A DNA stretch of 64,000 nucleotides from Candidatus Woesebacteria bacterium (GTDB lineage: Bacteria > Patescibacteriota > Microgenomatia > UBA8517), in the NCBI GenBank assembly GCA_013374835.1, contig CP055307.1, positions 660,768 to 724,767 on the forward strand, read 5' to 3'. Below the pieces are notes generated by a model. That model did not search any database. It had not been told where the DNA came from and saw only the letters and a list, made by a program, of their open reading frames with translations. Shown here piece by piece: positions 37,795-62,467 of this stretch (position 1 is its first letter; each line of letters opens with the position of its first letter). A program made the position numbers and the translations under genes.

Positions 37795-37834
37795 TTAAAT
37801 TAAGTGTAATTTTGTGCGAGACATATTGCCAAAT

Positions 37835-40071: not shown

Positions 40072-40123
40072 CTTAACTGAAGTATATCAAAAACCTGCGA
40101 AAATTGGCAATTTACGATGCTTA

Positions 40124-40594
40124 TCACTGAAGTGATCCTTCGATTTTCTCTTTCAGTTCCTCTGGAGACATGCGGACATTTTGAATCCCTGCGATAAAAC
40201 CGGCAAAGCCGTTTATCGGTTGGTGATTTACTCGCGGTATTATTTGCCAATGAAGATGTTTCACAGATGATCCAGAGTCAGGGCCGATATTGAAGCCAAT
40301 ATTGAAAGATTTAGTGTCAAAGATTTTTGAGAGAATGGTTTTTGTCTGCTCAATTTTTTCTTGCAATTCCACCCACTCATTTTTATTCAATTCTGAAGTA
40401 TCTTCGACATGACGTTTTAGCACCAACATTACATTTCCATCAAGTATCGGATATTGATTAACAAAAACCATCCAATTTTCGCCCTCAAGTGATTCGATGT
40501 TTTGCTTTTTTACTACTTCATTATTACAAAAAGGGCACTTTTTGTTATGGTAACTGTGGTTGTATTTTGATCTATATGGATTGTGGACTTTCAT
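40124..40594 (-). CDS. HIT family protein (histidine triad nucleotide hydrolase/transferase)
   Basis: VKHLHWQIIPR histidine triad; CPFC zinc motif; start taken at MKVHNPYRSKY (40594); the longer ORF-track N-terminus runs through the GC-rich repeat and is rejected. Confidence 0.6.
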   Translation of the reverse strand: MKVHNPYRSKYNHSYHNKKCPFCNNEVVKKQNIESLEGENWMVFVNQYPILDGNVMLVLKRHVEDTSELNKNEWVELQEKIEQTKTILSKIFDTKSFNIGFNIGPDSGSSVKHLHWQIIPRVNHQPINGFAGFIAGIQNVRMSPEELKEKIEGSLQ

Positions 40595-40755
40595 AACAAC
40601 AATAATGTTTAAGGATATCATAATTTGGTATACTGAAAACATATTAAAAATTTTTGCGTTTTTATTTTTCGCCTTAACAGGCGTGTTCGAGCCGACTTTT
40701 TGCGAGGCCGAAAGCCGAGCTAGGAATAAGCAGAGCTTGTCTCTGCGAGATAGCG

Positions 40756-40781
40756 CGGCGATTGGGTGGGGGCAATCGCCG
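40756..40781. repeat. perfect 9-bp GC-rich hairpin (CGGCGATTG-GGTGGGGG-CAATCGCCG), part of the extended copy-A repeat region
   Basis: Direct inspection; the CGATTGGGTG...CAATCG motif recurs around copy C. Confidence 0.4.
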
Positions 40782-40840
40782 CACCTTTGAAATACGTTCG
40801 AATTTGAATATATACAGAGCACACAAAATGATCAGATGGA

Positions 40841-40913
40841 TATGCGCGAGCCGCGAATGGCCGCGCGGCGAGCGCATTATGCGGAGGAATCGGGCAAAAT
40901 TCAATTCGTTTAC
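40841..40913 (+). repeat. GC-rich imperfect-palindrome repeat, copy A (GCGCGAGCCGCG-N4-GCCGCGCGGCGAGCGC ... ATGCGG...AATCGGG.AAAATTCAATTCGTTTA)
   Basis: ~90% identical to copy C (47905-47990) in the same orientation; inverted relative to copy B. Confidence 0.75.
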
Positions 40914-40982
40914 ATATGAGTAAGAAAAAATAAAAACACAAAAATTTAATCAAAGCCAGTTACTTTGATTGATTAAACTGCC

Positions 40983-42524
40983 ATGAAATACATAGCCTAT
41001 TGCAGAAAATCAACAGATGAGAAGGAGAAACAAATTCTCTCCATTGATCAGCAAATCTATGAGTTAAAGCAGTTTGCGCAGAGAGAAAACTTGGAGATAG
41101 TTGAATTTTTGACAGAGGCGCAAACTGCCAAAGTTCCTGGACGGAAAGTATTTTCAAACTTTATTAGCCTAGTTGAAAAAGGTGTTGCACAAGGAATTAT
41201 TGCTTGGCACCCCGACAGACTTGCCAGGAACTCGATAGGTGGTGGAAAAATTATTTATCTTCTCGATGAAGGAAAACTTCAATCTCTAAAATTTCCCACT
41301 TTCTGGTTTGAAAATACTCCCCAGGGCAGATTTATGCTTAATATCGCTTTTGGCCAAGCTAAGTATTATGTTGATAATCTAAGTGAGAATGTAAAACGAG
41401 GTTTATACCACAAATTAAGACATGGTGGCTGGCCATCGCTTGCCCCTATCGGCTACTTAAATGACAGAAACTTGCGTTCTGTCATTGTTCACCCCAAAGA
41501 GGGAAAGTTGGTAAAACTTGCTTTTCTGAAATTCTCCTCCGGCGAATTTAGCAGTATGAAAGATATTCAAACTTTCTTTTTCAAAAACAAGTTGTTTAAA
41601 GCTGGCGAAAAACCCATGCACTACAATCAAATTCGTGCAATTCTCACAAACAGCTTTTATTATGGCCTCATGCTTTACCATGGCGAAACGTATGAGGGTA
41701 GTCACAAGCCTTTAATTAGCAAAAAGACTTTTGACAAAGCTCAAGAAATTTTGGAGAAAAAGTACAGCAAGAAACCCCACAAGCACGAATTTGATTTCAC
41801 TGGTTTTATTACGTGCAAAGAATGCGGTTCGTTTGTAACTGCCGAGACACACAAAAAGTTCTATCGAAAAACGAACCGCAATGCTACCTATATTTACTAC
41901 CGCTGTGTCAAGAAAAAGGGAATTTGTTCGCAAAAGTACCTTCGTGAAGAAAAAGTTGAAAAACAGCTCAGAGAAATTGTGGAGAGTGTTTCTTTAAATG
42001 AAAAATGGCAAGCCAAAATGCTTGAACTTTTGGCGAAAGATGAGATTAAAGAAAAGGAAACAATTAAAAGTGAGCTTCGCTCACTCACAGTTTCTCTGGA
42101 AGCTGTCGAGGAAAAACTAGACAAACTACTTGAAGGCTACTTAGAAGAAATAGTTGACACCGAAGATTATCAAGCTAAGAAAAAAGATTTTCTCGACAAA
42201 AAGAAAGTTTTGAAAGAGAAAATATCAGAAGTTAAGCAAAAAGGAAGTGCTTGGCTCGAACCGATGAGAGAATTCATCAATGAGGCCGCAGAAGCGGCCA
42301 AAATCGCGCGCAAAAAAAATAATTGCGATGAACTTTCAGTCATCGCAAAAAAAGTCGGCTCGAACTTCTATATGATGAATAAACGGATTTATTTTGAGCC
42401 CTGCGCACCGCATATTGCGCTCGCCGCGCGGCCTGTCGCGGCTCGCGCATACCCCACCGCTACCATTTTGTGCCGAGGGTGGGACTCGAACCCACACGTC
42501 CGATTATCGAACACAGGATTTTAA
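40983..42524 (+). CDS. large serine recombinase (resolvase catalytic domain, recombinase domain, Zn-ribbon, coiled-coil)
   Basis: N-terminal YCRKSTDEKEKQILSIDQQ (catalytic Ser), AWHPDRLARN, recombinase domain, CKECGSFVTAETHKKFYRK...YYRCVKKKGICS zinc ribbon, long coiled-coil; the ORF as drawn reads through repeat B and into tRNA-Leu, so the true C-terminus is probably upstream of ~42400. Confidence 0.8.
   Translation: MKYIAYCRKSTDEKEKQILSIDQQIYELKQFAQRENLEIVEFLTEAQTAKVPGRKVFSNFISLVEKGVAQGIIAWHPDRLARNSIGGGKIIYLLDEGKLQSLKFPTFWFENTPQGRFMLNIAFGQAKYYVDNLSENVKRGLYHKLRHGGWPSLAPIGYLNDRNLRSVIVHPKEGKLVKLAFLKFSSGEFSSMKDIQTFFFKNKLFKAGEKPMHYNQIRAILTNSFYYGLMLYHGETYEGSHKPLISKKTFDKAQEILEKKYSKKPHKHEFDFTGFITCKECGSFVTAETHKKFYRKTNRNATYIYYRCVKKKGICSQKYLREEKVEKQLREIVESVSLNEKWQAKMLELLAKDEIKEKETIKSELRSLTVSLEAVEEKLDKLLEGYLEEIVDTEDYQAKKKDFLDKKKVLKEKISEVKQKGSAWLEPMREFINEAAEAAKIARKKNNCDELSVIAKKVGSNFYMMNKRIYFEPCAPHIALAARPVAARAYPTATILCRGWDSNPHVRLSNTGF
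42385..42470 (-). repeat. GC-rich imperfect-palindrome repeat, copy B (inverted), directly abutting the 3' end of tRNA-Leu(TAA)
   Basis: Reverse complement of 42406-42450 matches copy C core with 2 mismatches over 45 nt. Confidence 0.75.
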
Positions 42525-47904: not shown

Positions 47905-47990
47905 GGAGCGATTGGGTGTGCGCGAGCCGCGACAGGCCGCGCGGCGAGCGCATCATGCGGTGCAATCGGGAAAAATTCAATTCGTTTATT
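47905..47990 (+). repeat. GC-rich imperfect-palindrome repeat, copy C, directly 3' of tRNA-Leu(GAG)
   Basis: GCGATTGGGTGTGCGCGAGCCGCGACAGGCCGCGCGGCGAGCGCATCATGCGGTGCAATCGGGAAAAATTCAATTCGTTTATT; matches copies A and B. Confidence 0.75.
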
Positions 47991-48094
47991 TTCCAATAAG
48001 TAGTTCGAGCTGGCCCTTATCCCAAGCCAGATTTGTTATTCAATAAAAGTTTTGATTCGGTTGTTTCGGATGTTTGTGATAAAATAGATGATAC

Positions 48095-48168
48095 GGTCGG
48101 TTAGCTCAGTTGGCTAGAGCATTCGGCTTACATCCGAAAGGTCATAGGTTCGAGTCCTATACCGACCA
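48095..48168 (+). tRNA. tRNA-Val (anticodon TAC)
   Basis: GGTCGGTTAGCTCAGTTGGCTAGAGCATTCGGCTTACATCCGAAAGGTCATAGGTTCGAGTCCTATACCGACCA. Confidence 0.85.
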
Positions 48169-48177
48169 CTCATACGC

Positions 48178-48250
48178 GCTGGGATAGCCAAGTTGGTCAC
48201 GGCGGGCGCCTGAAGAGCGTCAGATGTGTGTTCGATTCACACTCCCAGCA
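48178..48250 (+). tRNA. tRNA-Phe (anticodon GAA)
   Basis: GCTGGGATAGCCAAGTTGGTCACGGCGGGCGCCTGAAGAGCGTCAGATGTGTGTTCGATTCACACTCCCAGCA. Confidence 0.8.
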
Positions 48251-48267
48251 CAAATTTTAAAATGTTG

Positions 48268-48404
48268 AGAATGGCTTCTTAGCAAAAAGAACTCAAAAAA
48301 GTAAGTTTCAATAAAAAAAATTTGCTATAATTATTAAGTACTTGCGGGTATAGTTGAAAGGTCCAACGACTCCCTTCCAAGGAGTAAATCGGGGTTCGAT
48401 TCCC
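48268..48404 (+). repeat. 137-bp direct repeat, left copy: tRNA-Gly(TCC) upstream region with TGCTATAAT extended -10, plus tRNA 5' portion through the T-loop
   Basis: ~135/137 identical to 51848-51984 (offset exactly 3580 bp). Confidence 0.85.
48344..48404 (+). pseudogene. truncated tRNA-Gly(TCC): 5' end to T-loop only, 3' T-stem and acceptor strand replaced
   Basis: Identical to the intact tRNA-Gly at 51924-51984, then diverges (TCACTGGGTACCATGG) and cannot close the acceptor stem. Confidence 0.75.
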
Positions 48405-48420
48405 TCACTGGGTACCATGG

Positions 48421-48490
48421 CCCGTGCTCAGTGGCTAGAGTGCTTCGTTTATATCGAAGAAGTCGTAGGTTCAAATTTTATCACCTTCAC
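48421..48490 (+). pseudogene. tRNA-like fragment: canonical acceptor 5' strand, D-arm and anticodon arm (loop TTTATAT, anticodon TAT), but no pairing 3' acceptor strand
   Basis: GGCCCGTGCTCAGTGGCTAGAGTGCTTCGTTTATATCGAAG...; the 3' part does not pair with the 5' acceptor strand. Confidence 0.4.
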
Positions 48491-48764
48491 GAAGTAGAAT
48501 GATGTAACCTCTGCACAGAATCCCGTTGAACGGACGAATACACAATGCAGTTTGACTTTTAAAGTATCCTGTAATATACTTTTTTGTACTTATGAGAATT
48601 TCATATGACGACCTATATTTATTGTATGTTGGCTTTTTTGGGATTGTGGTTTTAGCCAATATCGCCGCGATCCTTCTGAATAGACTTGTGGTTTTGTATT
48701 TTAAATTATTTGATCTACTTCTTAGGTTACCCAAAATTACTATAGCTTTATTTAACTTTAACAA

Positions 48765-49400
48765 ATGAAACTAATTAAAAAATTAATTTCTTTATCCCTT
48801 GTTGGAGTAGTGCTAATTTTGTGCTTAATGATAAGCGTGGTTGTATATGCAAATAGCGCTGAAATTTTTTCTAAAAAGGATATAGTATTTGCTAATGCCT
48901 TGACTTCATACCCAGAGTTACCAATTGCAGAAAAACATCTTTTTGTTTTACCCAACAGCGATCCAAATTTATCTGGAAATTTGATTGGCGATTTTGGAAA
49001 ACCAATCTCGCTTAATATTCCCTCAATAAGAAGAAAACTTGAGATAGTACCTGCAATAGTTAGAGAGAACACTCTTCTGGTTAGACCAAATAATGGACAC
49101 TTTTTGGTTCGTTTTGATGAAAAAGCTGTAAAAGACTTTCTAATTTATTTAAATAAATCATGGAGAACATTGCCTTCTCCTGAGGATATAAAAAGGGATA
49201 CAAATTTATATATCGATACGAACAGAAAGTGGAGATATGTATTTAAAATAGAAGAAATTGTCAGCCTTACGGAAGACAGTATTTTTGTGATCCCCGACAA
49301 CAAAACTACAAATTTAATTTTAATAATTAATTATCCTCTTGATAGAAAATTTTTAATCGTTAGAGCGGGATATAGAACCGTTGTACCAATAGAAAAATAA
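48765..49400 (+). CDS. membrane-anchored hypothetical protein (first gene of cassette)
   Basis: 211 aa; N-terminal TM; no catalytic motif recognised. Confidence 0.4.
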   Translation: MKLIKKLISLSLVGVVLILCLMISVVVYANSAEIFSKKDIVFANALTSYPELPIAEKHLFVLPNSDPNLSGNLIGDFGKPISLNIPSIRRKLEIVPAIVRENTLLVRPNNGHFLVRFDEKAVKDFLIYLNKSWRTLPSPEDIKRDTNLYIDTNRKWRYVFKIEEIVSLTEDSIFVIPDNKTTNLILIINYPLDRKFLIVRAGYRTVVPIEK

Positions 49401-49404
49401 TAAA

Positions 49405-50622
49405 ATGGAGTGGTTTATTACACTGAGAAATATAGCATTTTTATTTGCTACATTAATGCTTATAAAGTATTTTGTATTTTTGGTGATTGCTCCTTTTTAT
49501 ACTGTTAAGGAAAAAATTAGGTTTGAACGTATCAAGAGAAGAATGTCAGTTCCGTATAAGCCGTTGGTCTCAATTGTTATTCCTGCGTGGAACGAAGAGA
49601 TTGGGATCAAAAAAAGCATTCTCTCACTTGTTACAAATACTTATAAGAAGATTGAAATAATCGTAATTAATGATGGCTCCACTGATAGGACCGAAGAAGC
49701 TGTTAAAAGTATTAAAGATAGAAGGTTAAGATACTTTAAAAAAGAAAATGGGGGCAAGGGGACTGCTCTTAACTTAGGGGTAAACAAAGCAAAGGGAGAA
49801 ATAATTGTTACAATGGATGCTGATTCTGCTTTTGATAAACAAGCTATAGAAAATCTGATTAAATATTTTAGGGATGACTCAATCATGGCTGTGGTTGGTA
49901 ATGTAAAAATAGCCGGAGGGAAAGGCCTAATTGCCTATATTCAAAAGTTAGAATATAAATTTGGATTCTATTTCAAGAGGGCTCATGCTGTAATGGGAGC
50001 CGAGTACATATTTGGTGGAGCTTGCAGTGCATTTCGGAGAGAAGTTTTTGAGAAATTAGGGGGATTTGATATAGACAATAAAACTGAAGACATAGAGATG
50101 TCGATGAGAATGCGATTCAATGGAATGAAGTGTACGTTTGCATCTGATGTTATCTGTTACACAGAAGGAGCTAGCAGTATTATGGGTCTAGCCAATCAAA
50201 GACTAAGGTGGAAAAAGGGAAGATTTGATACTTTTATAAAATACAGAAGACTATTTATGTCGCTTGACAGACGACATAATAAGTTTTTGAGTTGGTTTGT
50301 TCTTCCTTATGCATTACTATCTGAGCTACAACTTTTATTTGAGCCAATTGCCCTGACCTTGTTACTTGCATACAGTTTTATATCGGGAGACTATTTGTCT
50401 CTGGCTATTGGAAGTTTGTTTATTATGATAATTTATTTTGTTGAATCTTTTTGGGTTGATGGAATTAAACCTTGGTTTTGGTTAACTTTCTTTTTTACAT
50501 GGCCGCTTTTTTATTTTTTGGTATGGATTGAATATTTAGCTTTAATAAAAGGATTTTTTATGATATTAAGGGGGGACGATATAAAATGGCAAAGATGGAA
50601 TAGAGTAGGAGTATCAATATGA
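49405..50622 (+). CDS. processive family-2 glycosyltransferase (PgaC/IcaA/NodC/cellulose-synthase-like beta-glycan synthase)
   Basis: N-terminal TM; GT-A motifs VSIVIPAWNEE, DGSTDRT, TMDADS; QRLRWKKG (QxxRW processivity motif); C-terminal TM helices; 405 aa. Confidence 0.75.
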   Translation: MEWFITLRNIAFLFATLMLIKYFVFLVIAPFYTVKEKIRFERIKRRMSVPYKPLVSIVIPAWNEEIGIKKSILSLVTNTYKKIEIIVINDGSTDRTEEAVKSIKDRRLRYFKKENGGKGTALNLGVNKAKGEIIVTMDADSAFDKQAIENLIKYFRDDSIMAVVGNVKIAGGKGLIAYIQKLEYKFGFYFKRAHAVMGAEYIFGGACSAFRREVFEKLGGFDIDNKTEDIEMSMRMRFNGMKCTFASDVICYTEGASSIMGLANQRLRWKKGRFDTFIKYRRLFMSLDRRHNKFLSWFVLPYALLSELQLLFEPIALTLLLAYSFISGDYLSLAIGSLFIMIIYFVESFWVDGIKPWFWLTFFFTWPLFYFLVWIEYLALIKGFFMILRGDDIKWQRWNRVGVSI

Positions 50623-51821
50623 AAAAAATATCTATAATTATTATTACTATTGTTCTACTTTTGATGTGTCTGGCTACTGTTGATGTTACCTATAATGCAT
50701 TAACTGGGGATAGTTTATATCTTAAGTTAAAAAGCAGGATCGATGAGCCGAGGGAAATCGAAAGAATTGGCAATTTTATAATTGGAGATAAGTGTAGCAA
50801 TGAAAAGGCTATTGAATTTCCAAAAGACTTAGCTGAGCCGCATCTTAAGAAACTTAGTCAATATCAAGATATTTGTGGTTCAAAAGTAACAAACTCCATG
50901 ATGGTTTTTACTGACATGCCAAAGGACGCTATTATTGCTCGGGAAAATGCCAAGAAACTTGCAGAAACTTTAAAACAATTTAACAAGTATGGGATAAAAC
51001 CGACTGTGATTGTTGAACCTATTTCTGAATGGGGTTTAATTGATTTTCAAGAATTTGGAACAGGTTTTTATGATAACTGGATTTTCACCTATTTTAATGA
51101 ACTCAAAAGACAGGGGGTAACTGATGAGATGATGGGGACTTGGGTTCCATTTCCAGAAGCAAATTTACCTTATTGGAATCACGCAAATGCGCAACCTGCT
51201 GACTTTGCTGGAATTGTTAATAGATATCTAAAAATTTTAAAGCAGCAGTTTCCTGCTGCAGAAGGTAGCATACTACTTAACTCTGCTACCTATGAAACTG
51301 ACGACTTTGAATGGACAAACGGAGAATATGTAAGCCTGAGACAGTATGTTGTTGGACTTGATAAAAATTTAATAGATTCTGTTGGGCTTCAAGGATTTCC
51401 TTGGGTTTCCCCCAAAGAGGCTACAAGTAATGCTGTGTTTAACCCAAGCGAATTTTTGAACCACTCATTGATAGCTGAAGCAGCTGACATTCTTGGGGTT
51501 AAAGACATTTGGCTTAATACTGGAACCTTTGGGGCTAAATATACTATTGATCCAGAAAATACGGTATATATATCAGCTGATAAACGAAAGGATTTACTTA
51601 ATGGGATATTGTCGGAGGCATTTAATTTAAAAAACCTTGGATATAATGTAACTATCAATATTTTCGCTCAAGACAAGTCTCTTCTTCCTGAAGCAACAGA
51701 CTGGAGTTATTTGCCTAATAGTTTTTCAAGAGATGAGCAAGCCCAAGTTGTCTTTGTTGAATTCGCTTCAAAAGCAAATAACAACAAGATAGGCTTATCA
51801 TTGTTTGATAGACAAGAGTAG
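50619..51821 (+). CDS. secreted/membrane-anchored hypothetical protein, possible polysaccharide hydrolase/modifying partner of the GT2 synthase
   Basis: 400 aa; N-terminal signal/TM; translationally coupled (4-nt overlap) to the GT2 gene; no motif recognised with confidence. Confidence 0.35.
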   Translation: MKKISIIIITIVLLLMCLATVDVTYNALTGDSLYLKLKSRIDEPREIERIGNFIIGDKCSNEKAIEFPKDLAEPHLKKLSQYQDICGSKVTNSMMVFTDMPKDAIIARENAKKLAETLKQFNKYGIKPTVIVEPISEWGLIDFQEFGTGFYDNWIFTYFNELKRQGVTDEMMGTWVPFPEANLPYWNHANAQPADFAGIVNRYLKILKQQFPAAEGSILLNSATYETDDFEWTNGEYVSLRQYVVGLDKNLIDSVGLQGFPWVSPKEATSNAVFNPSEFLNHSLIAEAADILGVKDIWLNTGTFGAKYTIDPENTVYISADKRKDLLNGILSEAFNLKNLGYNVTINIFAQDKSLLPEATDWSYLPNSFSRDEQAQVVFVEFASKANNNKIGLSLFDRQE

Positions 51822-51847
51822 GTGTTTAAGAGCATGAGCTTCGTGTA

Positions 51848-51984
51848 AGAATGGCTTCTTAGCAAAAAGAACTCAAAAAAATAAGTTTCAATAAAGAAAA
51901 TTTGCTATAATTATTAAGTACTTGCGGGTATAGTTGAAAGGTCCAACGACTCCCTTCCAAGGAGTAAATCGGGGTTCGATTCCC
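51848..51984 (+). repeat. 137-bp direct repeat, right copy (leads into the intact tRNA-Gly)
   Basis: See left copy. Confidence 0.85.
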
Positions 51985-51993
51985 CGTACCCGC
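51924..51993 (+). tRNA. tRNA-Gly (anticodon TCC), intact
   Basis: GCGGGTATAGTTGAAAGGTCCAACGACTCCCTTCCAAGGAGTAAATCGGGGTTCGATTCCCCGTACCCGCT; all stems close. Confidence 0.85.
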
Positions 51994-52102
51994 TCCCAAA
52001 GTGGAAATCTATCTATAAATTGTTAGCCTAGCTAGATAGTATTGAAAAATCGCTCAAAGATAAATTTTCAAAAAATGGTGTTATGATGATAAAAAAGAGT
52101 TT

Positions 52103-54376
52103 TTGTGTTTGATGGGAAAAATAACCCTTAAAATTTTATTTGTTTCTCTCTTAATTTCCTCTTGGCTTTTTGCTGGATGGCCGAGAATTTGGCAAAAGCC
52201 ACCAATTCCACCGGCTATTCGTAAAGCTAAGGCAGCGCAGGTAACGATTGATAATTCGATACACACCACTTCTACAAGTCACCTCGATAGTTCACCATCT
52301 ACAGTGTTTATTTCAGAAACTAATGGTTATACTTTTTATCGCGATAGCGGAGGTCAATGTGTTTACAGCAAAACCACAAATGGCGGGACAAGCTGGGGAA
52401 CAGCAGTGACTGTTGATTCTCAGACTGACTGTTTGCAAATTGCTGTCTGGTATGATCGCTGGACACCGGGGGATAATACTGGAACGTTAATCCATTTTGT
52501 GACTTTTGATTCTGGTGATGATGATATTTGGTATGGCTATTTAGATATCTCAAACAATGACTCACTTGCAACTCCAATTAATATCACATCTGGATTAGGT
52601 TATTCGGGCACTCTAGCTGTTGGCACAAACCACACTACCATCACCAAAGGCACGGACGGCGTGCTCTATGCGGCTGTGTCGGATGCTAATGGTACGGGCA
52701 ATATAATGGCCCGTTGTAGCTCAACCTGCACCACAGCAACCAACTGGGCAGTGTCTCAACCAGCATCATGGACTGCTGGTAATGACTATTTAATCTTGGT
52801 ACCTATGCTCTCTGACAAAATAATGCTTCTCTGGTGGGATATTTCATTAGGATCAAATGATATTAAATATTCTATCTGGGATGGTTCTTCTTGGTCGACT
52901 TTTGCTGCCATTGATACAGCTTTAGATAATGCTATTTATGACGCATCATGGGGTGCTGCGATTGACCCATCAACTGGAGATGTGTATTTGGCTTACGCTG
53001 CAAACGCGACTACTTTAGGAACGGACGACAGTATTCGGGTAAAAAAATACACGAGTAGCTGGTCATCCTTGACCGATGTAGTAACCAATAGCGCCTGTGC
53101 CGGCGTTTCAAACTGCGGCATTACCGGAGTTAAAATAGCGATGGACACGACGAGCGGCGACTTGTATGTCCTTTATTCGGCACAGTCAACTCCTGGCACC
53201 GCCACAACTGCTAATGTCTATTTCAAAAAATCAACCGACGGCGGCTCAACCTGGAGTTCAGAATTGGGTCCGGTCTATTCCACAAACGACGATATTTACG
53301 GCGCGCGCTTGAGCTTGTCCGATTCCGCGGGCATCCAGAGAATTTACGCTACTTGGTACGCGGCAACACCGGACGATTTATTCGGCCGGCCGATTGCGCC
53401 CTTAACGTTCAACCAATCTGCGTATCGGTTTTTTAATAATTCAGACTCAACTGATGTTGGTACACCTTTGGCGGTACAGAACACAGAGGCAACTTTGGGC
53501 TCGACCAACGCGGCGTTTCGCTTGAGGATTCTCTTGCATGTCGGAGTTTCTGACTTGTTTACGAGTGAACAGAGTTTCAAACTCCAATTTGCTCAACAAT
53601 CGGGAACGTGCGACACCGGATTTTCCGGAGAGACCTACGCTGATGTTACGACCTCAACCGTGATTGCCTACAACGACAACGCCACGCCTGATGACGGCGA
53701 CAACTTGACTACGAACACCAACGACCCGACACACGACGTTGATACCATTGTCAATCAAACTTACGAAGAATTAAATAATTTTACCAACTCCGTGGCGGCT
53801 ATTAACTCGGGTCAGGACGGCAAATGGGATTTTTCTCTCAAAGACAATAACGCTCCAGCCGAAACCACTTATTGTTTGCGGGTGGTCAAATCCGACGGCA
53901 CGGTTCTGGATACTTACACCGTAATTCCGCAAGTTACCACCGCTAGTTCGGCAACAATTTCTGTTTCTGTTTCCGATGGAAACGTTGCTTATGGGATTAT
54001 TCCTAAGGACACCTCAAAAACTACTCTTGCTTCTGATATGCCACCTTCAGGGGATATGCAAACGGTTAGTTATGATACCAATGTAACGGTTAATATCAAC
54101 ATTAAGGGTAGCGACGCTTCGGGTGGGGGTTGTACTTGGGTATTGGCGGGTACCAATGGTAACGATCAATATGTTCATCAATTTTGCAACGCCACCGATA
54201 ATAATTGTTCAAGTCCGCCAACAAATTATACCGCTTTAACAAGCGGTTATCAGACATTAAAAAGCGGAGTTTCTGGTCAGGGAACAGTGGATTTCCATTT
54301 GCGAATAACTATGCCCACCGAATCAAGTTGTTATGGCGAACAATCAATTAATGTGACTATTCAAGCAGCTCAATAA
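52103..54376 (+). CDS. large secreted BNR/Asp-box repeat (sialidase-like beta-propeller) protein with a C-terminal WxL-like domain
   Basis: N-terminal signal/TM; multiple SxDxGxTW Asp-box motifs (TTNGGTSWG, STDGGSTWS); C-terminal ~150 aa homologous to ORF 55580-56125; 757 aa; middle third markedly GC-rich. Confidence 0.6.
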   Translation: MCLMGKITLKILFVSLLISSWLFAGWPRIWQKPPIPPAIRKAKAAQVTIDNSIHTTSTSHLDSSPSTVFISETNGYTFYRDSGGQCVYSKTTNGGTSWGTAVTVDSQTDCLQIAVWYDRWTPGDNTGTLIHFVTFDSGDDDIWYGYLDISNNDSLATPINITSGLGYSGTLAVGTNHTTITKGTDGVLYAAVSDANGTGNIMARCSSTCTTATNWAVSQPASWTAGNDYLILVPMLSDKIMLLWWDISLGSNDIKYSIWDGSSWSTFAAIDTALDNAIYDASWGAAIDPSTGDVYLAYAANATTLGTDDSIRVKKYTSSWSSLTDVVTNSACAGVSNCGITGVKIAMDTTSGDLYVLYSAQSTPGTATTANVYFKKSTDGGSTWSSELGPVYSTNDDIYGARLSLSDSAGIQRIYATWYAATPDDLFGRPIAPLTFNQSAYRFFNNSDSTDVGTPLAVQNTEATLGSTNAAFRLRILLHVGVSDLFTSEQSFKLQFAQQSGTCDTGFSGETYADVTTSTVIAYNDNATPDDGDNLTTNTNDPTHDVDTIVNQTYEELNNFTNSVAAINSGQDGKWDFSLKDNNAPAETTYCLRVVKSDGTVLDTYTVIPQVTTASSATISVSVSDGNVAYGIIPKDTSKTTLASDMPPSGDMQTVSYDTNVTVNINIKGSDASGGGCTWVLAGTNGNDQYVHQFCNATDNNCSSPPTNYTALTSGYQTLKSGVSGQGTVDFHLRITMPTESSCYGEQSINVTIQAAQ

Positions 54377-54389
54377 ATTTTTTATGACT

Positions 54390-55504
54390 TGACATGCACA
54401 GGATCAGATACATATTCGACATTGAGTAAGCATGGCAAGATCCACTGGGGTAAGCATGAAATCTGAGTTTGTAATGGGTAAAATCAAGAATTCCAAGGAG
54501 GTGATGAACTTGATTTCCCATCTGAGAAGATTTGATCAAAGTGAGGTGGCCCAGGAAAGACTAAGAATAATTAAGTATTATGCCAAACATGGAGAGGTTG
54601 CCACAAAAGAGGCCTTTGGAGTAGATCGCAAGCTTATCTTCACCTGGAAGAAAAGAGTACTAGAGAGAAAGAGTATCCAGGGGTTAGTTCCAGACTCCAC
54701 AGCTCCAAGGGGGGTAAGAAGGTCAGTAGTGGATCCTAAAATTGTTGATTATATTAAATCCCAAAGAGAGTTTGTCCCCAGAATGAGCAAGAAGAAGCTT
54801 AAACCCTTACTTGATGCATACTGCAGAGAAAATAATCTCCTAACAGTATCAGAGGCTACCATTGGGAGGATTATCTCAAGAAACAATCTATTTTATTACA
54901 AAACAGGCAGAGTATACCACAATCCAGCCTCTAAATGGGCTCAAAACAAGACTAAGAGCAAGAAGAACAGAATTAAATATGCACCCAAACCAGAAACTCT
55001 GGGATACATCCAAGCTGATACTGTGGAGAAAATCATTGATGGCATTAGGTGGTATATGTACCAGGCAATTGATGTGAAGGGAAAGTCTGCCCTTTCCCTG
55101 ACCTACAAACACTTAAATTCAGTTAACACTGTGGACTTCTTCAAGAAATTCCAAACACTTATTCCCTACAAAATCCACACAGTCCAGACTGACAATGGTA
55201 AAGAGTTTCTCAAACAATTCAGGGTTTACCTAGAAAAACAAAACATCAAACACATTTTTATATACCCCAGAATGTCCAAGATCCAGGGGGTGGTAGAGCG
55301 CTTCAACAGGACCATCCAGGAAGATTTTATTGACCCCAACCTCCACCTTATCTACAACCAGAAAGCTTACAATCAACGTCTTGCAAAGTACCTGATATAC
55401 TACAACTGCCAGAGAGTACATGAATCCCTAGGTAATATGACACCAACAGACTATCTCATCCAGGAAGGAGGTATGTCGAATATGTTACGATCCTGTACAT
55501 GACA
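54390..55504 (+). mobile_element. insertion sequence (~1.1 kb) with single DDE transposase and 32-33-bp imperfect terminal inverted repeats; IS481/IS30-like
   Basis: IRL TGACATGCACAGGATCAGATACATATTCGACAT (54390-54422) vs reverse complement of IRR TGTCATGTACAGGATCGTAACATATTCGACAT (55473-55504), ~28/33 matches; possible 4-bp ATGA flanking duplication. Confidence 0.75.
54432..55502 (+). CDS. DDE transposase (rve/integrase-core with N-terminal HTH)
   Basis: D (YIQADTVEK), D (VQTDNGKEF), E (ERFNRTIQEDF) triad; C-terminal YNCQRVHESLGNMTP; 356 aa. Confidence 0.8.
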   Translation: MARSTGVSMKSEFVMGKIKNSKEVMNLISHLRRFDQSEVAQERLRIIKYYAKHGEVATKEAFGVDRKLIFTWKKRVLERKSIQGLVPDSTAPRGVRRSVVDPKIVDYIKSQREFVPRMSKKKLKPLLDAYCRENNLLTVSEATIGRIISRNNLFYYKTGRVYHNPASKWAQNKTKSKKNRIKYAPKPETLGYIQADTVEKIIDGIRWYMYQAIDVKGKSALSLTYKHLNSVNTVDFFKKFQTLIPYKIHTVQTDNGKEFLKQFRVYLEKQNIKHIFIYPRMSKIQGVVERFNRTIQEDFIDPNLHLIYNQKAYNQRLAKYLIYYNCQRVHESLGNMTPTDYLIQEGGMSNMLRSCT

Positions 55505-55579
55505 ATGAAAAAAATATTTTAGTAAAGTTAAAAATAGCTAATATGAATAAAAATATGGATACCAAGGAAGCAAAATATT

Positions 55580-56125
55580 TTGAGAGGGGGTGAAGATGTG
55601 TTTAAAAGAATTTTAATATCTTTTGCTTTGATGATTCTTTTGGGTGGTAATTTTTGGTTTGAAGTAATGGCAGCTGACACCGGCGATGTGACGGCAACGG
55701 TAACAGTACAAAATGTAGCAATTACAGTTTCCGACGGTGCCATTGCCTATGGCACTTTAGCTGCTGGAGGAACCAGAAGTACATTACCAAGCGAGGCTAA
55801 TGACATGCAAGTTGCCACCAATACCGGTAATGTTCAAGAGGATTTTAACATTAAAGGATATAACGTTTCTTCTGGCTGTAGTTGGACACTTGGCGCAACC
55901 CAAGACTCTGAACAGTATTTTCATAAATTTTGTAATGATACGGCCAATGATTGTTCAACACCACCAACTAATTATAATGCCTTAACTACAAATTACCAAA
56001 CTCTAAGTTCAGCTGTACCGACTAGTGGTGCTAGAGATTTTCAATTACAGATTGGTGTTCCATCTTCAACTTCTTGTACATCTGAAGCAACCATAACAGT
56101 TACAGTTCAAGCTGTTGCTAGTTAA
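55580..56125 (+). CDS. secreted protein consisting of a WxL-like beta-sandwich domain (paralog of the BNR protein C-terminus)
   Basis: Signal peptide; ~40% identity to 54000-54376 translation (VSDG.IAYG ... NIKG...GCSWTL ... DQY.H.FCN.T.N.CS.PPTNY.ALT..YQTL); 181 aa. Confidence 0.5.
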   Translation: MRGGEDVFKRILISFALMILLGGNFWFEVMAADTGDVTATVTVQNVAITVSDGAIAYGTLAAGGTRSTLPSEANDMQVATNTGNVQEDFNIKGYNVSSGCSWTLGATQDSEQYFHKFCNDTANDCSTPPTNYNALTTNYQTLSSAVPTSGARDFQLQIGVPSSTSCTSEATITVTVQAVAS

Positions 56126-56165
56126 GATTATTGCCAAGATTTTATATGAGTGATAGAGTTTTATT

Positions 56166-56780
56166 ATGAGAAAGACTTTATTTTTTGTGATTTTTTTAAC
56201 TTTTTTCGTTTTTCCACTTCCGGTTTTTTCCAATCTTGGAGTAGGTGTTGCTACCGGAAAAATTGTGGTTGAAGACAAACTCAGACCAGGGATGATTTAT
56301 AATCTTCCTCCGTTGACAGTATTAAACACAGGCGACGAGGAAGCAGAATATGAGGCGGGTGTGGCTTATCACGAGAAGCAATCAGAACTTCAGCCGAATG
56401 AAAAATGGTTTGATTTTTCTCCAAAAAAATTCTTTCTTAAACCAGGTGAAAGTCAGAAAGTAGAAATCAAATTAAATTTACCAGTTAGAGCTGAACCCGG
56501 CGATTATTTCGCTTATTTGGAGGGTAAACCATTGAAAAAATCAGAATCAGGTAAATCAACAATAGGAATAGCTGCAGCGGCTAAGCTTTACTTTACTGTT
56601 TTACCGGCTAACCCAATTTTGGGAGCTTATTATAAAGCAGTGTCTCTTTGGAAAATTAACCAGCCCTGGTCCGCACGTTTTGCGATAATTATCGGAGTAG
56701 CTATTCTTTATTCCTTACTAAATAGATTCTTAGGATTTCAAATCAGCTTTGGCAAAAAAAAAGAAAAAAAGAATGAATGA
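56166..56780 (+). CDS. cell-surface protein with N-terminal signal peptide, Ig/PapD-like middle and C-terminal TM anchor with basic tail (CscA/DUF916-like architecture)
   Basis: 204 aa; signal; C-terminal TM IIIGVAILYSLL followed by KKKEKKNE. Confidence 0.35.
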   Translation: MRKTLFFVIFLTFFVFPLPVFSNLGVGVATGKIVVEDKLRPGMIYNLPPLTVLNTGDEEAEYEAGVAYHEKQSELQPNEKWFDFSPKKFFLKPGESQKVEIKLNLPVRAEPGDYFAYLEGKPLKKSESGKSTIGIAAAAKLYFTVLPANPILGAYYKAVSLWKINQPWSARFAIIIGVAILYSLLNRFLGFQISFGKKKEKKNE

Positions 56781-57409
56781 AATGGGTAGGATCATTTTTT
56801 TTTATACTTATTCTCGCCTTGCTTTTTAAAGGTTTTACCTTTGTTCAGGGGATTTCTTTTCAAGATTTAGAGGCAACCATTAAAATTAGTGTTTGTGGCG
56901 ACGGAAAAATTGAAGGCGATGAGAATTGCGAGGGAGATAATTTAAATAACCAAACTTGTGAAAGTTTAGGCTATGGTTCTGGTACCTTAACTTGCGATAT
57001 TGCCTGCAGTTTTGATACTTACGGCTGCTTACCCGCTCCAACAACTACTCCTACACCATTTTCTTCTACCCATCAAACTATTCCCCAATCTGACACAACC
57101 ACGTCTAGTTTAATTTCAAGTCTGGCACCAACACCCTTTTTTTATTCTACTCCGAAACGAACCGTCTCCCTTCCGCAGGCAATAATTCCTTTTGACACTA
57201 ATTGTGATAATATAATTGAAATAAGTGAACTTTTTGAAAGCGTCAGAGATTGGGTTGATAGCTGGATAATTAAAACGAGTAAATCAATTATTCGAAGAGA
57301 AACCAGCAAAAAAACAAGATGTGGTTTAATTCAAGATTGTGATTTAAACCGTGATAATGAGTGTAATATAGTCGATTTTTCAATACTTATGTATTACGTA
57401 AAGATATAA
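56777..57409 (+). CDS. secreted Cys-rich protein with Thr/Pro-rich linker and two dockerin-like Ca-binding-type repeats
   Basis: Signal peptide; CGDGKIEGDENCEGD; T/P/S linker; DTNCDNIIEISELFESVRDWV and DCDLNRDNECNIVDFSILMYYV resemble dockerin repeats; 210 aa. Confidence 0.35.
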   Translation: MKWVGSFFFILILALLFKGFTFVQGISFQDLEATIKISVCGDGKIEGDENCEGDNLNNQTCESLGYGSGTLTCDIACSFDTYGCLPAPTTTPTPFSSTHQTIPQSDTTTSSLISSLAPTPFFYSTPKRTVSLPQAIIPFDTNCDNIIEISELFESVRDWVDSWIIKTSKSIIRRETSKKTRCGLIQDCDLNRDNECNIVDFSILMYYVKI

Positions 57410-57410
57410 A

Positions 57411-58403
57411 ATGAAAAAACTCGCTATTTTCACTTTTCTTCTAAAGATTATTGGCTTTATTATTGCCTCTTGGTTTTTGGTTCATATCTTGTCTATTTTT
57501 GGAGTCTTTTTGGCATTAGCTTACCCTCTTTGGTATCTTTTTGGATTTAAGAGAATTCCTTGTTTATGGTGTCAAATTAAAAAGGCGCAATTTTGTACTT
57601 TTTCTCATAGTATTTTCGATTCTGGCTTGATTTTGGTTTTTACTTTGTTTTCTCTTGGCTTAGTTTTTGCTGAAGCAAAAATTATTTTCAAAATGGGTTT
57701 TCCACCAACAGCTAAAACAGTTTCTTTTGTTATTCCCACTAAGGGTCAATACCGATTAGGTGAAATCTTTCCAATGAAGATCGAAATATCTGGGGTTAAA
57801 ACCCCTATTAATGCCGTTCAAGCTGATTTGGGTTTTGACTCTAAAAAAATTCAGATTGTTGACATATCAACCAATGAATCGTTTGCAAATATATTTATTC
57901 AGAAAGAAATCAATAATGAAGTTGGTTATGCCCGATTGACCGGTGGTTTGCCAAATCCTGGTTTTTTTTCAGAACATGGAGTTTTTGGTTCTGTTTTTTT
58001 TAAGGGCATAACACCAGGAATTGTACAAATTAAGTTTCTGCCCTCTTCAATGGTTTTAGCAAATGACGGTCGAGGCAGTAATGTATTAAAGGATTTGGCA
58101 TCTGCTTCTTATTTGATTTTACCTGAAAAATTGTCTCAAGAGGAAGAAGAGATTCAAAAAAGTATTATTTTGAAACCAAATGTTTTGGGGGAAAGTAACG
58201 AAAACACTAAAATGAAGTTTTATGAAGAGAAAGGAGTTTTAGGAACGCAGGTTGTAAAAGACATCGAAAAAGTGAAAAAATTTGACTTAGGTAAAAAAAT
58301 ATTAGAAATTTTGGAAAAAATTGATCGGTTTATTTTATCTTTGTGGGCAAGGTTAACTGGATTAACGTCATCTTTTTTTACTTCGCGTTTCTACCGGGCA
58401 TAA
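57411..58403 (+). CDS. membrane protein with cohesin-like extracellular domain
   Basis: Three N-terminal TM helices, then VSFVIPTKGQYRLGEIFPMKIEISGVKTPINAVQADLGFDSKKIQIVDIS...GVFGSVFFKGITPGIVQIKF, a cohesin-like pattern; 330 aa. Confidence 0.35.
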   Translation: MKKLAIFTFLLKIIGFIIASWFLVHILSIFGVFLALAYPLWYLFGFKRIPCLWCQIKKAQFCTFSHSIFDSGLILVFTLFSLGLVFAEAKIIFKMGFPPTAKTVSFVIPTKGQYRLGEIFPMKIEISGVKTPINAVQADLGFDSKKIQIVDISTNESFANIFIQKEINNEVGYARLTGGLPNPGFFSEHGVFGSVFFKGITPGIVQIKFLPSSMVLANDGRGSNVLKDLASASYLILPEKLSQEEEEIQKSIILKPNVLGESNENTKMKFYEEKGVLGTQVVKDIEKVKKFDLGKKILEILEKIDRFILSLWARLTGLTSSFFTSRFYRA

Positions 58404-58516
58404 CTACAACAAACGGCGAACAAGAAGTTTTTTTAGTTTTTATCGCAAATATATAACAATTTTAAATAATTTTTGATAAAATAAGGTTTAGCAGTTTTTT
58501 CAGATATACTCAAAAT

Positions 58517-58591
58517 GCCCCGTTAGTTCAACGGATAGAACAAATCCCTTCTAAGGATTAGATGGGGGTTCGATTCCCTCACGGGGCACCA
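58517..58591 (+). tRNA. tRNA-Arg (anticodon TCT), CCA encoded
   Basis: GCCCCGTTAGTTCAACGGATAGAACAAATCCCTTCTAAGGATTAGATGGGGGTTCGATTCCCTCACGGGGCACCA. Confidence 0.85.
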
Positions 58592-58667
58592 GGGCCCGTA
58601 GCTCAGTGGCCAGAGCAGTCGGCTCTTAACCGAATGGTCGGAGGTTCGAATCCTCCCGGGCTCACCA
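58592..58667 (+). tRNA. tRNA-Lys (anticodon CTT), CCA encoded; starts directly after the CCA of tRNA-Arg
   Basis: GGGCCCGTAGCTCAGTGGCCAGAGCAGTCGGCTCTTAACCGAATGGTCGGAGGTTCGAATCCTCCCGGGCTCACCA. Confidence 0.8.
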
Positions 58668-58979
58668 TTTGGGAAATCGCGAAATCGTTGGATGCGGTGC
58701 CCCGACCCGCCGCGTTTCCGAAAAAGTCGGCTTGAACATTCCGCTGAAAGCGTAACAAAGAAAAACGCAAAAATTTTAAAGAACTTTTATTAAATTCAAA
58801 TGGCCACCCCGGTCGTACTCAAACCCTTTCAGATCTGCCCAAGGTGGCCATTAAAAAATCCGAAAGATAATTAGAGTACAGTTTTAATATACAAATTTTT
58901 CAAAGAAAAAAACAATAATTACTCTTCTCAAAAACTTTTGAAAAAAATATAATACACTTAAAATTATTGAAAAACATAT

Positions 58980-59294
58980 ATGAATACGCAACAAAAACAA
59001 TTGCTTAACTTTGTCCGCAAACTCAATCTGGATGTCCTTATGTTTGAGGAGTTGGAAGACCAAGATAGTCCACTAGTGAGTTTTATTAACTCATTTACTC
59101 TTAATTACATTGTTTCAGGACTTAATCAGTCAGAAAGACAAAAGTTTGTTGACTTGCTTGAACACGAGGCTGATGACGACAATGTATGGCAGTTTGTGAG
59201 AAAACACATTAAAAACTTTGATGAGAATTACGAAAAAGAGTTGGAAGGTAAATTAAAAGAAATAAAAATTCAGGCACTAAATAACAAGAAGTAA
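58980..59294 (+). CDS. hypothetical protein (islet-borne)
   Basis: 104-aa ORF; no motif. Confidence 0.3.
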   Translation: MNTQQKQLLNFVRKLNLDVLMFEELEDQDSPLVSFINSFTLNYIVSGLNQSERQKFVDLLEHEADDDNVWQFVRKHIKNFDENYEKELEGKLKEIKIQALNNKK

Positions 59295-59307
59295 CAACGA
59301 AAACATT

Positions 59308-62160
59308 ATGATAGACAATAACGAACAACTAGGTTTCTCTGAACAAGAAGTATTAAAAGAAAAGGCTTTAAAACTTTCTTCAAAATATACAGAGGTCATT
59401 AAGCGGATAACCGATACATCGGTTTACAAAGACGAAAATACTGGGCATTTCAGATTAACAACCGATGGTAGGCAAAATGCACACGAAATCTTTGATGACT
59501 TTTTTAAGCAGGCAGGTGGAAATCACCAACTTCTAAGACTAGCGGTGGACAGTGCTTATAAAACAGTTAAGTCTGATATTCAACAAAGCAGAGAAGAAGA
59601 AAAGCTTGATGAGCGTGGGTGGGCGTTATTAAGAACCGTACAAAGCATACAAGGAGTGAATACTTGGCAGGAAGCAAATGAAGTTTACTCAAGGATGGTT
59701 GGTCAAGCCGCCAAAGAGCAGGGCCTTTCCGCCGCTCGGCTATATCAAAAAGCAAAGGAAATAAGAGAACGACTTGAATCTGAGGGTATATCGGTTGATG
59801 AATATTTAAGAAAAGATAAAGAAAAATTTGATAATGTTCTCATAACCGAAACTGAAAAACTTGATAACGAAACAGTAACACTGCTAGGCAAAGCAAGAAA
59901 AAAGTTAGAGGAATTTAAACAAAAAGTTAGCGGTTGGCTTCCCAAAAAGCAGAAAGACAGACAACCCCAGATAGAAACCCGTGATATTACTCCAGAGGAA
60001 GAAGTTCCAGCTTTGCTTAGAAAAAAAATGACTCGCAGGCAATTCTTGAAATTTGCGGGGGCAACGGGAGCAGTAATTGTGCTGGAGCCTATCATTAGGG
60101 TGGGATTAGACCCTGAATTTCAAGCGGGACTTAGAGCTGCTTCTACCCGCCCTGAAATGCCAGGTAGTGGAGAGAGACACGAGGTTTCCTTGTCAACTTT
60201 ACTTGAAGTTTACAGAAAACATTTTAAGGGAAGGGAACATTTGCTCCCAGAAAGGGTTTGGGTAAGGACAGAAGGAGAAGGTGCAGATGAAAAACTAAGA
60301 GGGACAGGCACGCATCTTGGCATTCTTGCCAACCAATATTACGAGTCTGAAAAAAGAGGGGGGGAAGATTTTGACACCTACTACAAACGCTTCGTAGACA
60401 GCTTTCACGATTTGTCAGATACTGCTGGGCTTGACTTCATCACCCTAGTAACCAGTTTGCAAATTAGTGCTGAAAATATTGCTGGTTATGAAGAGCCCAA
60501 AGGCCCATCGAATATTGATGTTAATGTATCTCGTATTCAAGAAGTGGGAATAACTGCTGCACGAGCACTGGGACTAGAGTCTGCTATGGTTGAATCATTA
60601 GGTATAGGTGGACTTGCGTCTCAAATTAGAAACGAAGCTGAAAGGAGGGGTATTACAACGCCTCTGGAGGGTGCTATACCTAAGGAAGGCATAAGGCATT
60701 ACGATTTAATAAGATTAAGAGAACAGCCAACCACGGGTTTAATGGACTTCGAGCCAGGTGGTCGTGCAGAGGCTTTTATTTCGTTCCAAAACAATCCTTT
60801 AAGCGAAATGCTACGAAGAGAATATCCTCAAGTTTGCGAAAAATACGATAGAGCACACGAAAGGCGTGAGGAAGTTTCAGCAATAAGGGGAGAAATGGAG
60901 TCAGCTGCAAACGACTTTATTGAAAGACACGAAGACACTCTTAGACCATTTGCGGAAGGAAATGAAGAGGCTCTTAATGCAATCGGAATTTCACCCAATA
61001 TGGATTTGTGGCAACTAATAAACTATACAGATGTTTGGTATAAGGTCTCTGAAATACCAACTAACCCTGAATTTGCCTACCAACGAACAGTTGAATATAT
61101 AAAAAAAGAAGCGACTAAAGACCCACGAGCTTTCTATAAAAGATTATTTTCTCAGCAAATTAGAAATCCAAGATTTCTAAACTATTTAATGGATCACTCA
61201 ATCTCAAACAACGACCAAGAAGAAGGCTCGGCTGTATCCAATATCCAAAACCTTGTAACAGAATACGAGCAGAAGGCAAAGAATTTAAGGATTGCCCATC
61301 TTAATATTTTAGAAGCAGAAGGAAGGTTTGAATACGACAGCAGATTTCAACAAGCAACAAGTGTTTTAGTAACCAAAAAACTCTCTGATACAGCGGGAAA
61401 GTTTAACCCAAACAGCAGAGACAGCCTTGGCTGGCATATCTATAAAACTTGTGCAGCCAGAGAAATAGCCCCTATCCCCTTTTTGGTAGACGAACAGCCA
61501 TTCGCTTGCGACATAACAATTGACCCACCTTATGCACCAGAGGCAACCATAGAATCATTAGATACTTTTGCAAGGATGTTACAAGAAGCTGGGATACTTG
61601 AAACAGCTCCAGACAGAAATATAAATGCGTTCTATAGCACTATGGAGAAAATGTTCTGGCGAGATGGGGGTGTGTGGTTTGGAGCAGAACCCACAGAAGA
61701 AGAACAAACAAAATGGAAAAAAATATTAAACCACTTTAATGAAAAGTTGGCTAACCGTTTATTTTATGACTTTGCAGGACTACTTCACGATGAGCAAAAA
61801 ATGAGTGAGTTAAATAAAATAATGATGAACAAAGGACTTATTTCCGAACCCGCCAATAAAGACCCTTATAATTTTTTCACCCAGTTTGTTTATTTAGCAT
61901 TAAATAGTAGACATATGCGCCGAAATATTTCAGATGCTGATTGGAATGAAGCAGAGAGGTATTTTCAAGATAATATAATGCCCATGGTCATTACCAGAGA
62001 AGAAGTTTCACCTGGGGTTTTTAGGGAAAAATGGAACATAGGCTCTGCTGACTATCCTCCAATATTCCGTTCACAAGCAGTAATGTATAATTTCCTTATT
62101 GACCAAAACCCAGAATCACCATCATCAACACCATCAAGTGAGGTGCTAGGACACCATTAG
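59308..62160 (+). CDS. large hypothetical protein (ORFan) with internal Tat-like motif and TM helix
   Basis: 950 aa; residues ~243-265 MTRRQFLKFAGATGAVIVLEP resemble a Tat signal but are internal; no catalytic motif; GC content visibly above local background. Confidence 0.45.
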   Translation: MIDNNEQLGFSEQEVLKEKALKLSSKYTEVIKRITDTSVYKDENTGHFRLTTDGRQNAHEIFDDFFKQAGGNHQLLRLAVDSAYKTVKSDIQQSREEEKLDERGWALLRTVQSIQGVNTWQEANEVYSRMVGQAAKEQGLSAARLYQKAKEIRERLESEGISVDEYLRKDKEKFDNVLITETEKLDNETVTLLGKARKKLEEFKQKVSGWLPKKQKDRQPQIETRDITPEEEVPALLRKKMTRRQFLKFAGATGAVIVLEPIIRVGLDPEFQAGLRAASTRPEMPGSGERHEVSLSTLLEVYRKHFKGREHLLPERVWVRTEGEGADEKLRGTGTHLGILANQYYESEKRGGEDFDTYYKRFVDSFHDLSDTAGLDFITLVTSLQISAENIAGYEEPKGPSNIDVNVSRIQEVGITAARALGLESAMVESLGIGGLASQIRNEAERRGITTPLEGAIPKEGIRHYDLIRLREQPTTGLMDFEPGGRAEAFISFQNNPLSEMLRREYPQVCEKYDRAHERREEVSAIRGEMESAANDFIERHEDTLRPFAEGNEEALNAIGISPNMDLWQLINYTDVWYKVSEIPTNPEFAYQRTVEYIKKEATKDPRAFYKRLFSQQIRNPRFLNYLMDHSISNNDQEEGSAVSNIQNLVTEYEQKAKNLRIAHLNILEAEGRFEYDSRFQQATSVLVTKKLSDTAGKFNPNSRDSLGWHIYKTCAAREIAPIPFLVDEQPFACDITIDPPYAPEATIESLDTFARMLQEAGILETAPDRNINAFYSTMEKMFWRDGGVWFGAEPTEEEQTKWKKILNHFNEKLANRLFYDFAGLLHDEQKMSELNKIMMNKGLISEPANKDPYNFFTQFVYLALNSRHMRRNISDADWNEAERYFQDNIMPMVITREEVSPGVFREKWNIGSADYPPIFRSQAVMYNFLIDQNPESPSSTPSSEVLGHH

Positions 62161-62195
62161 GTTGAATTAACAGAAATTAAAATATAATCATAAAT

Positions 62196-62381: not shown

Positions 62382-62467
62382 TTAGACATAGAATTTGAAC
62401 CCGAAAGAGTTAAACTGAAAATCACAAAACAGAGTTTTGTGGCTACAACAAAAATACCAAAGGAAAG

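Follow-up and report, generated by a model that had tools for sequence, protein, structure and literature searches.

A four-gene envelope-polysaccharide operon inserted in a tRNA array of a Candidatus Woesebacteria bacterium, bordered by copies of the promoter and 5' part of tRNA-Gly

How can a block of genes come to lie within a tRNA array with no integrase of its own, and with the promoter side of the affected tRNA gene, not its 3' side, duplicated at the borders? The question is raised by a stretch of 64,000 nucleotides (nt) from a Candidatus Woesebacteria bacterium (Patescibacteriota; contig CP055307.1 of assembly GCA_013374835.1, positions 660,768 to 724,767), hereafter the window, in which an operon predicted to serve envelope polysaccharide lies between two direct copies of the promoter and 5' part of a tRNA-Gly(TCC) gene. 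Patescibacteria possess very small genomes, and how they gain genes is little understood. The proteins encoded around the block likewise point to Patescibacteria. We conclude that the block is a genuine insertion specific to this lineage, a variant of the theme of tRNA-associated islands whose borders are unusual in structure, that it places 3.44 kb of DNA in an ancestral Val-Phe-Gly(TCC)-Arg(TCT)-Lys(CTT) array, and that it probably arose through integrase-independent recombination via tRNA sequence.

The repeat is 137 nt long, with 135 of the 137 positions identical between the left copy (48268-48404) and the right copy (51848-51984; both on the + strand, as are the array's tRNA genes and tRNA remnants, the operon with its promoter-like site and Blocks B and C, all described below), at a spacing of 3580 nt, the two mismatches being at 48301/51881 (G/A) and 48316/51896 (A/G). 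Within 46-54 kb, exact repeats reach a length of 88 nt, while those of shuffled sequences reach 12-15 nt, and the promoter half of the 137-nt repeat occurs exactly twice in the window, with no occurrence expected. Each copy consists of a promoter region, 76 nt long and containing an extended -10 element (TGCTATAAT), and the first 61 nt of tRNA-Gly(TCC), which on the left begins at 48344. The right copy reads on into an intact tRNA-Gly(TCC) (51924-51996), the only intact one found in the window, which is called by ARAGORN, scores 65.7 bits with Rfam and folds into a cloverleaf (z -2.96). The tRNA of the left copy, its acceptor stem broken, receives no ARAGORN call, scores 33.5 bits with Rfam and shows no advantage over shuffled sequences in folding. 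A preliminary description of the locus had already reported the near-identity and spacing of the copies, the full tRNA-Gly on the right and the atypical duplication of the promoter and 5' portion, and on all of these points our alignments, shuffle comparisons and tRNA searches agree with it. It had also placed the end of the identity exactly in the T-loop; the identity in fact reaches the third base of the T stem's 3' strand.

The same description regarded the left copy as a truncated tRNA, correctly in that this copy is dead, while missing what the tRNA is joined to. Its tail comes from a tRNA-Arg(TCT)-like gene, of which it is the 3' end, and the left copy is therefore a Gly/Arg chimera, in which the promoter and the 5' 61 nt of tRNA-Gly(TCC) are joined to a diverged tRNA-Arg(TCT) 3' end (48405-48417, TCACTGGGTACCA, the native counterpart being TCACGGGGCACCA, as found by self-blast and alignment). 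The joint falls inside 14 nt, GGGGTTCGATTCCC (48391-48404), that the alignment shows to be common to tRNA-Gly(TCC) and tRNA-Arg(TCT), two genes that are 85% alike over 40 nt; this 14-mer has three matches in the window (in tRNA-Gly at 51971-51984, in the chimera and in tRNA-Arg at 58565-58578), with none expected. The left tail region is 87% identical over 71 nt to the native sequence at 58545-58615 (self-blast), and 48371-48440 matches the point where the native tRNA-Arg(TCT) (58517-58591) and tRNA-Lys(CTT) (58592-58667) of the window meet.

Adjoining the Arg-like tail with zero spacer, as in the native Arg-Lys pair, and in the position that tRNA-Lys(CTT) occupies in that pair, is a decayed tRNA-like pseudogene (48418-48489), with an anticodon stem CTTCG/CGAAG, a loop TTTATAT and no acceptor pairing. 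It had been described as a tRNA 5' half and, for its TAT triplet, as a possibly notable tRNA-Ile(UAU). Neither holds, as the relic is nearly full-length, possessing the D, anticodon and T arms, and is without the paired 7-bp acceptor stem and the standard positions 8-9 of a functional tRNA-Ile(UAU), one nucleotide being missing at positions 8/9. There are three G-U pairs in its T stem, ARAGORN makes no call, the Rfam match (31.3 bits) is local, covering model positions 10-63, and the fold has a z of -0.07. Attempts to assign the relic to one isoacceptor failed, with tRNAs for Val(TAC), Lys(CTT), Thr and Arg scoring alike. Since it is decayed, devoid of acceptor pairing and ambiguous in identity, its TAT 'anticodon' is no evidence of a tRNA-Ile(UAU), and the case cautions against taking pseudo-tRNA relics for unusual decoders. 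Divergence is much greater in the relic than in the 137-nt repeat, and the anticodon stem of the relic, perfectly paired, is unlike that of Lys(CTT), suggesting that by the time the repeat formed the relic was already of foreign origin or old.

As to whether the block was inserted into the array, as had been proposed, the comparison with relatives answers in the affirmative. Two contigs from two samples, both representing a sister species and ~90-94% identical to the window at the nucleotide level, cover the site: L086, a 332-kb Joint Genome Institute (JGI) contig that was reached via members of a GTPase cluster, and L095, found in a metagenome scan with the Arg-like tail as query, two of its positions being allowed to vary. 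In both, the array is contiguous, Val-Phe-Gly(TCC)-Arg(TCT)-Lys(CTT), with a gap of 5 nt between Gly and Arg and of 0 nt between Arg and Lys, and in L086 it then continues with the sequence of window positions 62972-64000. The window keeps the order of the native tRNA-Val(TAC) (48095-48169) and tRNA-Phe(GAA) (48178-48251), both called by ARAGORN (73.3 and 62.7 bits with Rfam), and the native array resumes 6.5 kb downstream of tRNA-Gly, a fact previously overlooked, with the tRNA-Arg(TCT)/tRNA-Lys(CTT) pair (58517-58667), 98.7% identical to the sister species. The array of the sister species being uninterrupted, the arrangement in the window is the derived one. The duplication is also young, as its copies differ at 2 of 137 positions, whereas L086 and the window differ by 7-9% over the repeat segment; with L086 as the outgroup, each copy carries one private G-to-A change. 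The tail scan recovered 46 loci in all, mostly unrelated tRNA arrays, and besides L095 it yielded L121, likewise with the plain array. A scan of genome contigs based on the flanking GTPase yielded no relative.

A repeat of this length could also be a product of assembly, a free circle of 3580 bp, or a collapsed repeat, that has the 137 nt in common with the chromosome and was threaded into it by the assembler. A circle alongside a plain array would yield the same assembly-graph topology as an integrated copy, and one of two Logan assemblies from other sequencing runs, L001 (SRR7008310), is a cycle of exactly 3580+30 nt with identical ends, with the left-copy alleles in its right copy and the phase of the single-nucleotide polymorphisms (SNPs) opposite to that in the window; a circle, gene conversion and simplification of the graph would each account for this. 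Both Logan assemblies, however, reproduce the junctions between cassette and repeat. The other, L004 (SRR6825879), is a strict unitig that runs from repeat exit to repeat entry and stops there, as two in-edges predict; it differs from the window by two SNPs, both in the cargo, indicating that a second strain has the same structure. The window assembly, moreover, tells the two copies apart by two SNPs, and a 3.6-kb circle would be unlikely to last without a replication gene. We therefore hold an artefact to be very unlikely, and the Gly/Arg chimeric joint is real either way.

What, then, could have produced these borders? Read from left to right, the locus consists of the resident 5' part, the joint, the insert, a further copy of the resident 5' part and the resident 3' part. 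The left edge of the insert is a tRNA-Arg(TCT)-like 3' end with the tRNA-like relic, followed by the four-gene operon, and recombination inside the 14 nt common to Gly(TCC) and Arg(TCT) would have generated the dead chimera at the left joint. The 137 nt of resident promoter and tRNA-Gly 5' part lie on both sides of the insert, so that the right side retains a whole tRNA-Gly driven by its promoter. An incoming circle carrying the 137-nt segment and inserting by a single crossover (Campbell-type) would give this topology, and so would a duplication of the 137 nt during insertion, by template switching. Recombination between the repeats would then be expected to remove the block precisely, restoring the plain array. 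Integrase-independent recombination is favored because an integrase core does not account for a 137-nt, promoter-containing repeat. The preliminary description had offered two mechanisms, and of these the capture by homologous recombination fits better and the atypical integrase sublocation less well, with neither proven.

One alternative to such recombination, which we consider unlikely, is that a tyrosine integrase acted in trans with the T-arm 14-mer as the crossover core, the block being an integrase-less, cis-mobilizable islet. The T arm is a classical crossover place in tRNA genes, regenerated targets with displaced fragments figure in the Islander account (PMC4383910), and Block C, 6.7 kb downstream, has a classical duplication of a tRNA-Lys 3' end, indicating that tRNA-targeting elements were active at this locus. 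Against this, none of the open reading frames (ORFs) tested from 37.9 to 63.7 kb encodes a tyrosine integrase, canonical islands have the restored gene on the other side, and the repeat reaches 123 nt 5' of the core, through the promoter and with 99% identity to resident sequence, for which an attP core offers no explanation. In the same interval, no recombinase is encoded in the block itself, and elsewhere only the IS481-like transposase and the serine recombinase of other blocks are found. The latter (40983-42524) was considered as the agent and rejected, because enzymes of this kind are not known to leave long duplications and none of its GC-rich repeats occurs in the block.

The order at the left border is that of the native Gly-Arg-Lys, with zero Arg-Lys spacer, and this recommends a different history, an old segmental duplication of Gly-Arg-Lys that flanked the operon, whose left copy decayed, first by slippage that deleted the sequence between the T arms of Gly and Arg and then by mutation of Lys, while gene conversion kept the promoter and Gly 5' part identical. 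Direct 14-nt repeats ~80 nt apart would favor such slippage, and the left-copy alleles in the right copy of L001 could reflect conversion. Random decay, however, would not produce the relic's own anticodon stem, which pairs perfectly and differs from the one in Lys(CTT); the sister species lacks the duplication, and no close ortholog of the operon is on record for it; and several events plus sustained conversion would be required. This history, too, we judge improbable.

Integrase-independent recombination, while preferred, has its own difficulties. The data presented here give no account of how incoming DNA came to carry, or to cause the duplication of, 137 nt that are 99% identical to the resident sequence. 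The viral-contig and metagenome scans uncovered no donor with the order of Arg-like end, relic and operon: the viral contigs contain no match to the chimeric joint and none to the tRNA-Gly 5' half, and none of the 46 metagenome loci with an Arg-like tail carries the operon or is a donor. The empty site of the sister species could in principle result from precise loss via the repeats, as opposed to original absence. An attempt to determine which repeat copy is native, by aligning the flanks to the Phe-Gly spacer of the sister species, failed because the alignable stretch 5' of tRNA-Gly is only ~45 nt. The composition of the block, finally, deviates only mildly, its tetranucleotide correlation being 0.945 versus a median of 0.967, even if it has the lowest guanine-cytosine (GC) content among 60 sliding 3.4-kb chunks of the window. 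All these points weigh against the preferred reading.

The nearest known relatives of this arrangement are the tDNA islands, such as those mapped by Islander (PMC4383910), and the tRNA gene fragments that integration leaves behind (PMC9897764). As in those, the insert is in a tRNA gene, a direct repeat consists of tRNA sequence, one copy works and the other is a fragment, and a close relative, here L086 and L095, has the empty target. In contrast to those, the promoter and 5' two-thirds are duplicated in place of the 3' part, the intact gene is the distal one, and the dead copy combines two different tRNAs. Integrase islands have a tyrosine or serine integrase inside, near the att site, and an island-borne 3' part that restores the target, while here none of the four ORFs is an integrase, as had been stated before, and the left 3' end is Arg-like and restores no tRNA-Gly. 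Campbell-type insertions and repeat-flanked amplifiable units offer a parallel in some respects, with long, near-identical resident repeats flanking the insert (135 of 137 nt, homologous to the tRNA-Gly promoter and gene of the sister species), the insert plus one repeat forming a cycle in the assembly graph, and precise loss to be expected. The difference is that a circle would in this case need the resident promoter-tRNA fused to a foreign tRNA tail. We found no description of such an arrangement in Patescibacteria in the literature, and island finders seeking only 3' fragments and an integrase would miss the block.

The cargo, previously counted as three genes, comprises four. Just 5' of them is a promoter-like site, TTGACT-17-TATACT (48552-48580), a consensus match only. 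The first gene (48592-48768) encodes a conserved small membrane protein of 58 amino acids (aa), with counterparts of 61-64 aa in loci L005, L007 and L008 and a blastn match to L005; the second (48765-49400) a 211-aa protein with an N-terminal membrane anchor, of no known family and syntenic in L005-L008; the third (49405-50622) a predicted GT2 membrane glycosyltransferase of the processive-synthase type (Pfam Glycos_transf_2, 4e-38); and the fourth (50619-51821) a membrane-anchored 400-aa protein with a predicted (beta/alpha)8 barrel, like the glycoside hydrolases of clan GH-A. The barrel has no Pfam or NCBIfam family, and its assignment comes from an AlphaFold2 (AF2) model (pLDDT, the predicted local distance difference test, 85.7) that Foldseek matches to GH1, GH53, PslG and GH26 at TM scores of 0.4-0.5. 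The GT2 protein matches BcsA over residues 25-367 and scores 180 bits with NCBIfam PgaC_IcaA, below the cut-off of 422, so that, judged by its sequence, it is a putative synthase-like enzyme and no PgaC equivalog. Like the synthase-dependent Pga, Bcs and Psl operons, this one would pair a membrane GT2 synthase-like enzyme with a GH-A-like hydrolase fold whose structural matches include PslG; unlike them, it has a GT2 below the PgaC cut-off, no counterparts of PgaB/PgaD or BcsB, and two partner proteins of no known family.

The operon is a widespread chromosomal module of Patescibacteria, present in varied contexts and rarely beside tRNAs. None of 77 GTDB loci carrying it has a bracketing repeat of at least 35 nt, and most are not tRNA-adjacent, and the idea of the operon itself as a tRNA-targeting mobile element was therefore rejected. 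Its nearest homolog by ORF3, at 70% identity, is L005, which likewise lies between tRNA genes. No ORF3 homolog between 70% and 100% identity was found in 5.8 billion proteins, a collection that includes contigs of the sister species, and no close ortholog of the operon from the sister species is on record. This gap, the low GC content of the block and the tRNA setting of L005 speak for a probable foreign origin of the block. The sequence that follows tRNA-Lys(CTT) in the window (58666-58700, CCATTTGGGAAATCGCG...) resembles that 3' of the tRNA preceding the L005 operon (positions 1-52 of L005; 77% over 52 nt), and its 9-mer ATGCGGTGC recurs in the GC-rich repeats described below. In Saccharimonadales, a distant, N-terminally shorter ORF3 paralog (35-41% identity; L050, L059, L061, L062, L065, L069, L071 and L083) is separated by a few hundred nt from tRNA-Gly(TCC), and in most of these loci that tRNA heads an opposite-strand Gly(TCC)-Arg(TCT)-His array.

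The cassette is one of three extra blocks in this array compared with the sister species; the array gained all three, as lineage-specific blocks, since the split from that species, and a neighboring tRNA pair gained a fourth. The envelope-polysaccharide operon added by the cassette could play a part in attachment to hosts. Block B (51997-58516) puts 6.5 kb in place of the 5-nt Gly-Arg spacer and encodes a BNR-like protein of 757 aa, for which an exact-sequence look-up returned no record, an IS481-like transposase (54432-55502; 151 bits, below the cut-off of 224) and proteins that are cohesin-like or secreted; it may have a short target duplication resembling CTCAA. Block C, a 4.3-kb insertion (58666-63014), is bracketed by the 3' part of tRNA-Lys(CTT) (58623-58665 and 62972-63014), 43 nt of which the last 32 are identical, and these borders are a classical island signature. 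It contains a 104-aa ORF and a 950-aa protein with a twin-arginine translocation (TAT) signal, and the second tRNA-Lys-like copy (62942-63013) scores 46.5 bits with Rfam, with no ARAGORN call. Upstream, where the sister species has a gap of 26 nt between tRNA-Pro(TGG) and tRNA-Leu(TAA), the window has a segment of 4.66 kb (37802-42465) that encodes the large serine recombinase along with HIT, histidine-phosphatase and ParB-CE proteins. The window contains three copies of a GC-rich repeat, GCGAGCCGCGACAGGCCGCGCGGCGAGCGC (40846-40875, +; 42417-42446, -; 47922-47951, +), with none expected. Two copies, in inverted orientation, flank the serine recombinase gene, and two begin immediately at the 3' end of tRNA-Leu(TAA) and of tRNA-Leu(GAG), being alignable over ~100 nt; the repeat has no Rfam match and is absent at the same places in the sister species. 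The interval between tRNA-Leu(GAG) and tRNA-Val is 156 nt in the window (47905-48060) versus 2.2 kb with four ORFs in L086 (11654-13884), and is different again in L095.

The locus invites a broader proposal, that Patescibacteria capture foreign operons without an integrase, via tRNA-like edges that recombine with resident T arms, with the duplication of promoter and 5' part preserving the essential tRNA and the repeats making the cassette reversible, on or off at the level of the population. We regard this generalization as doubtful at present. If it were true, tRNA arrays would be the main platform of gene gain in these tiny genomes.

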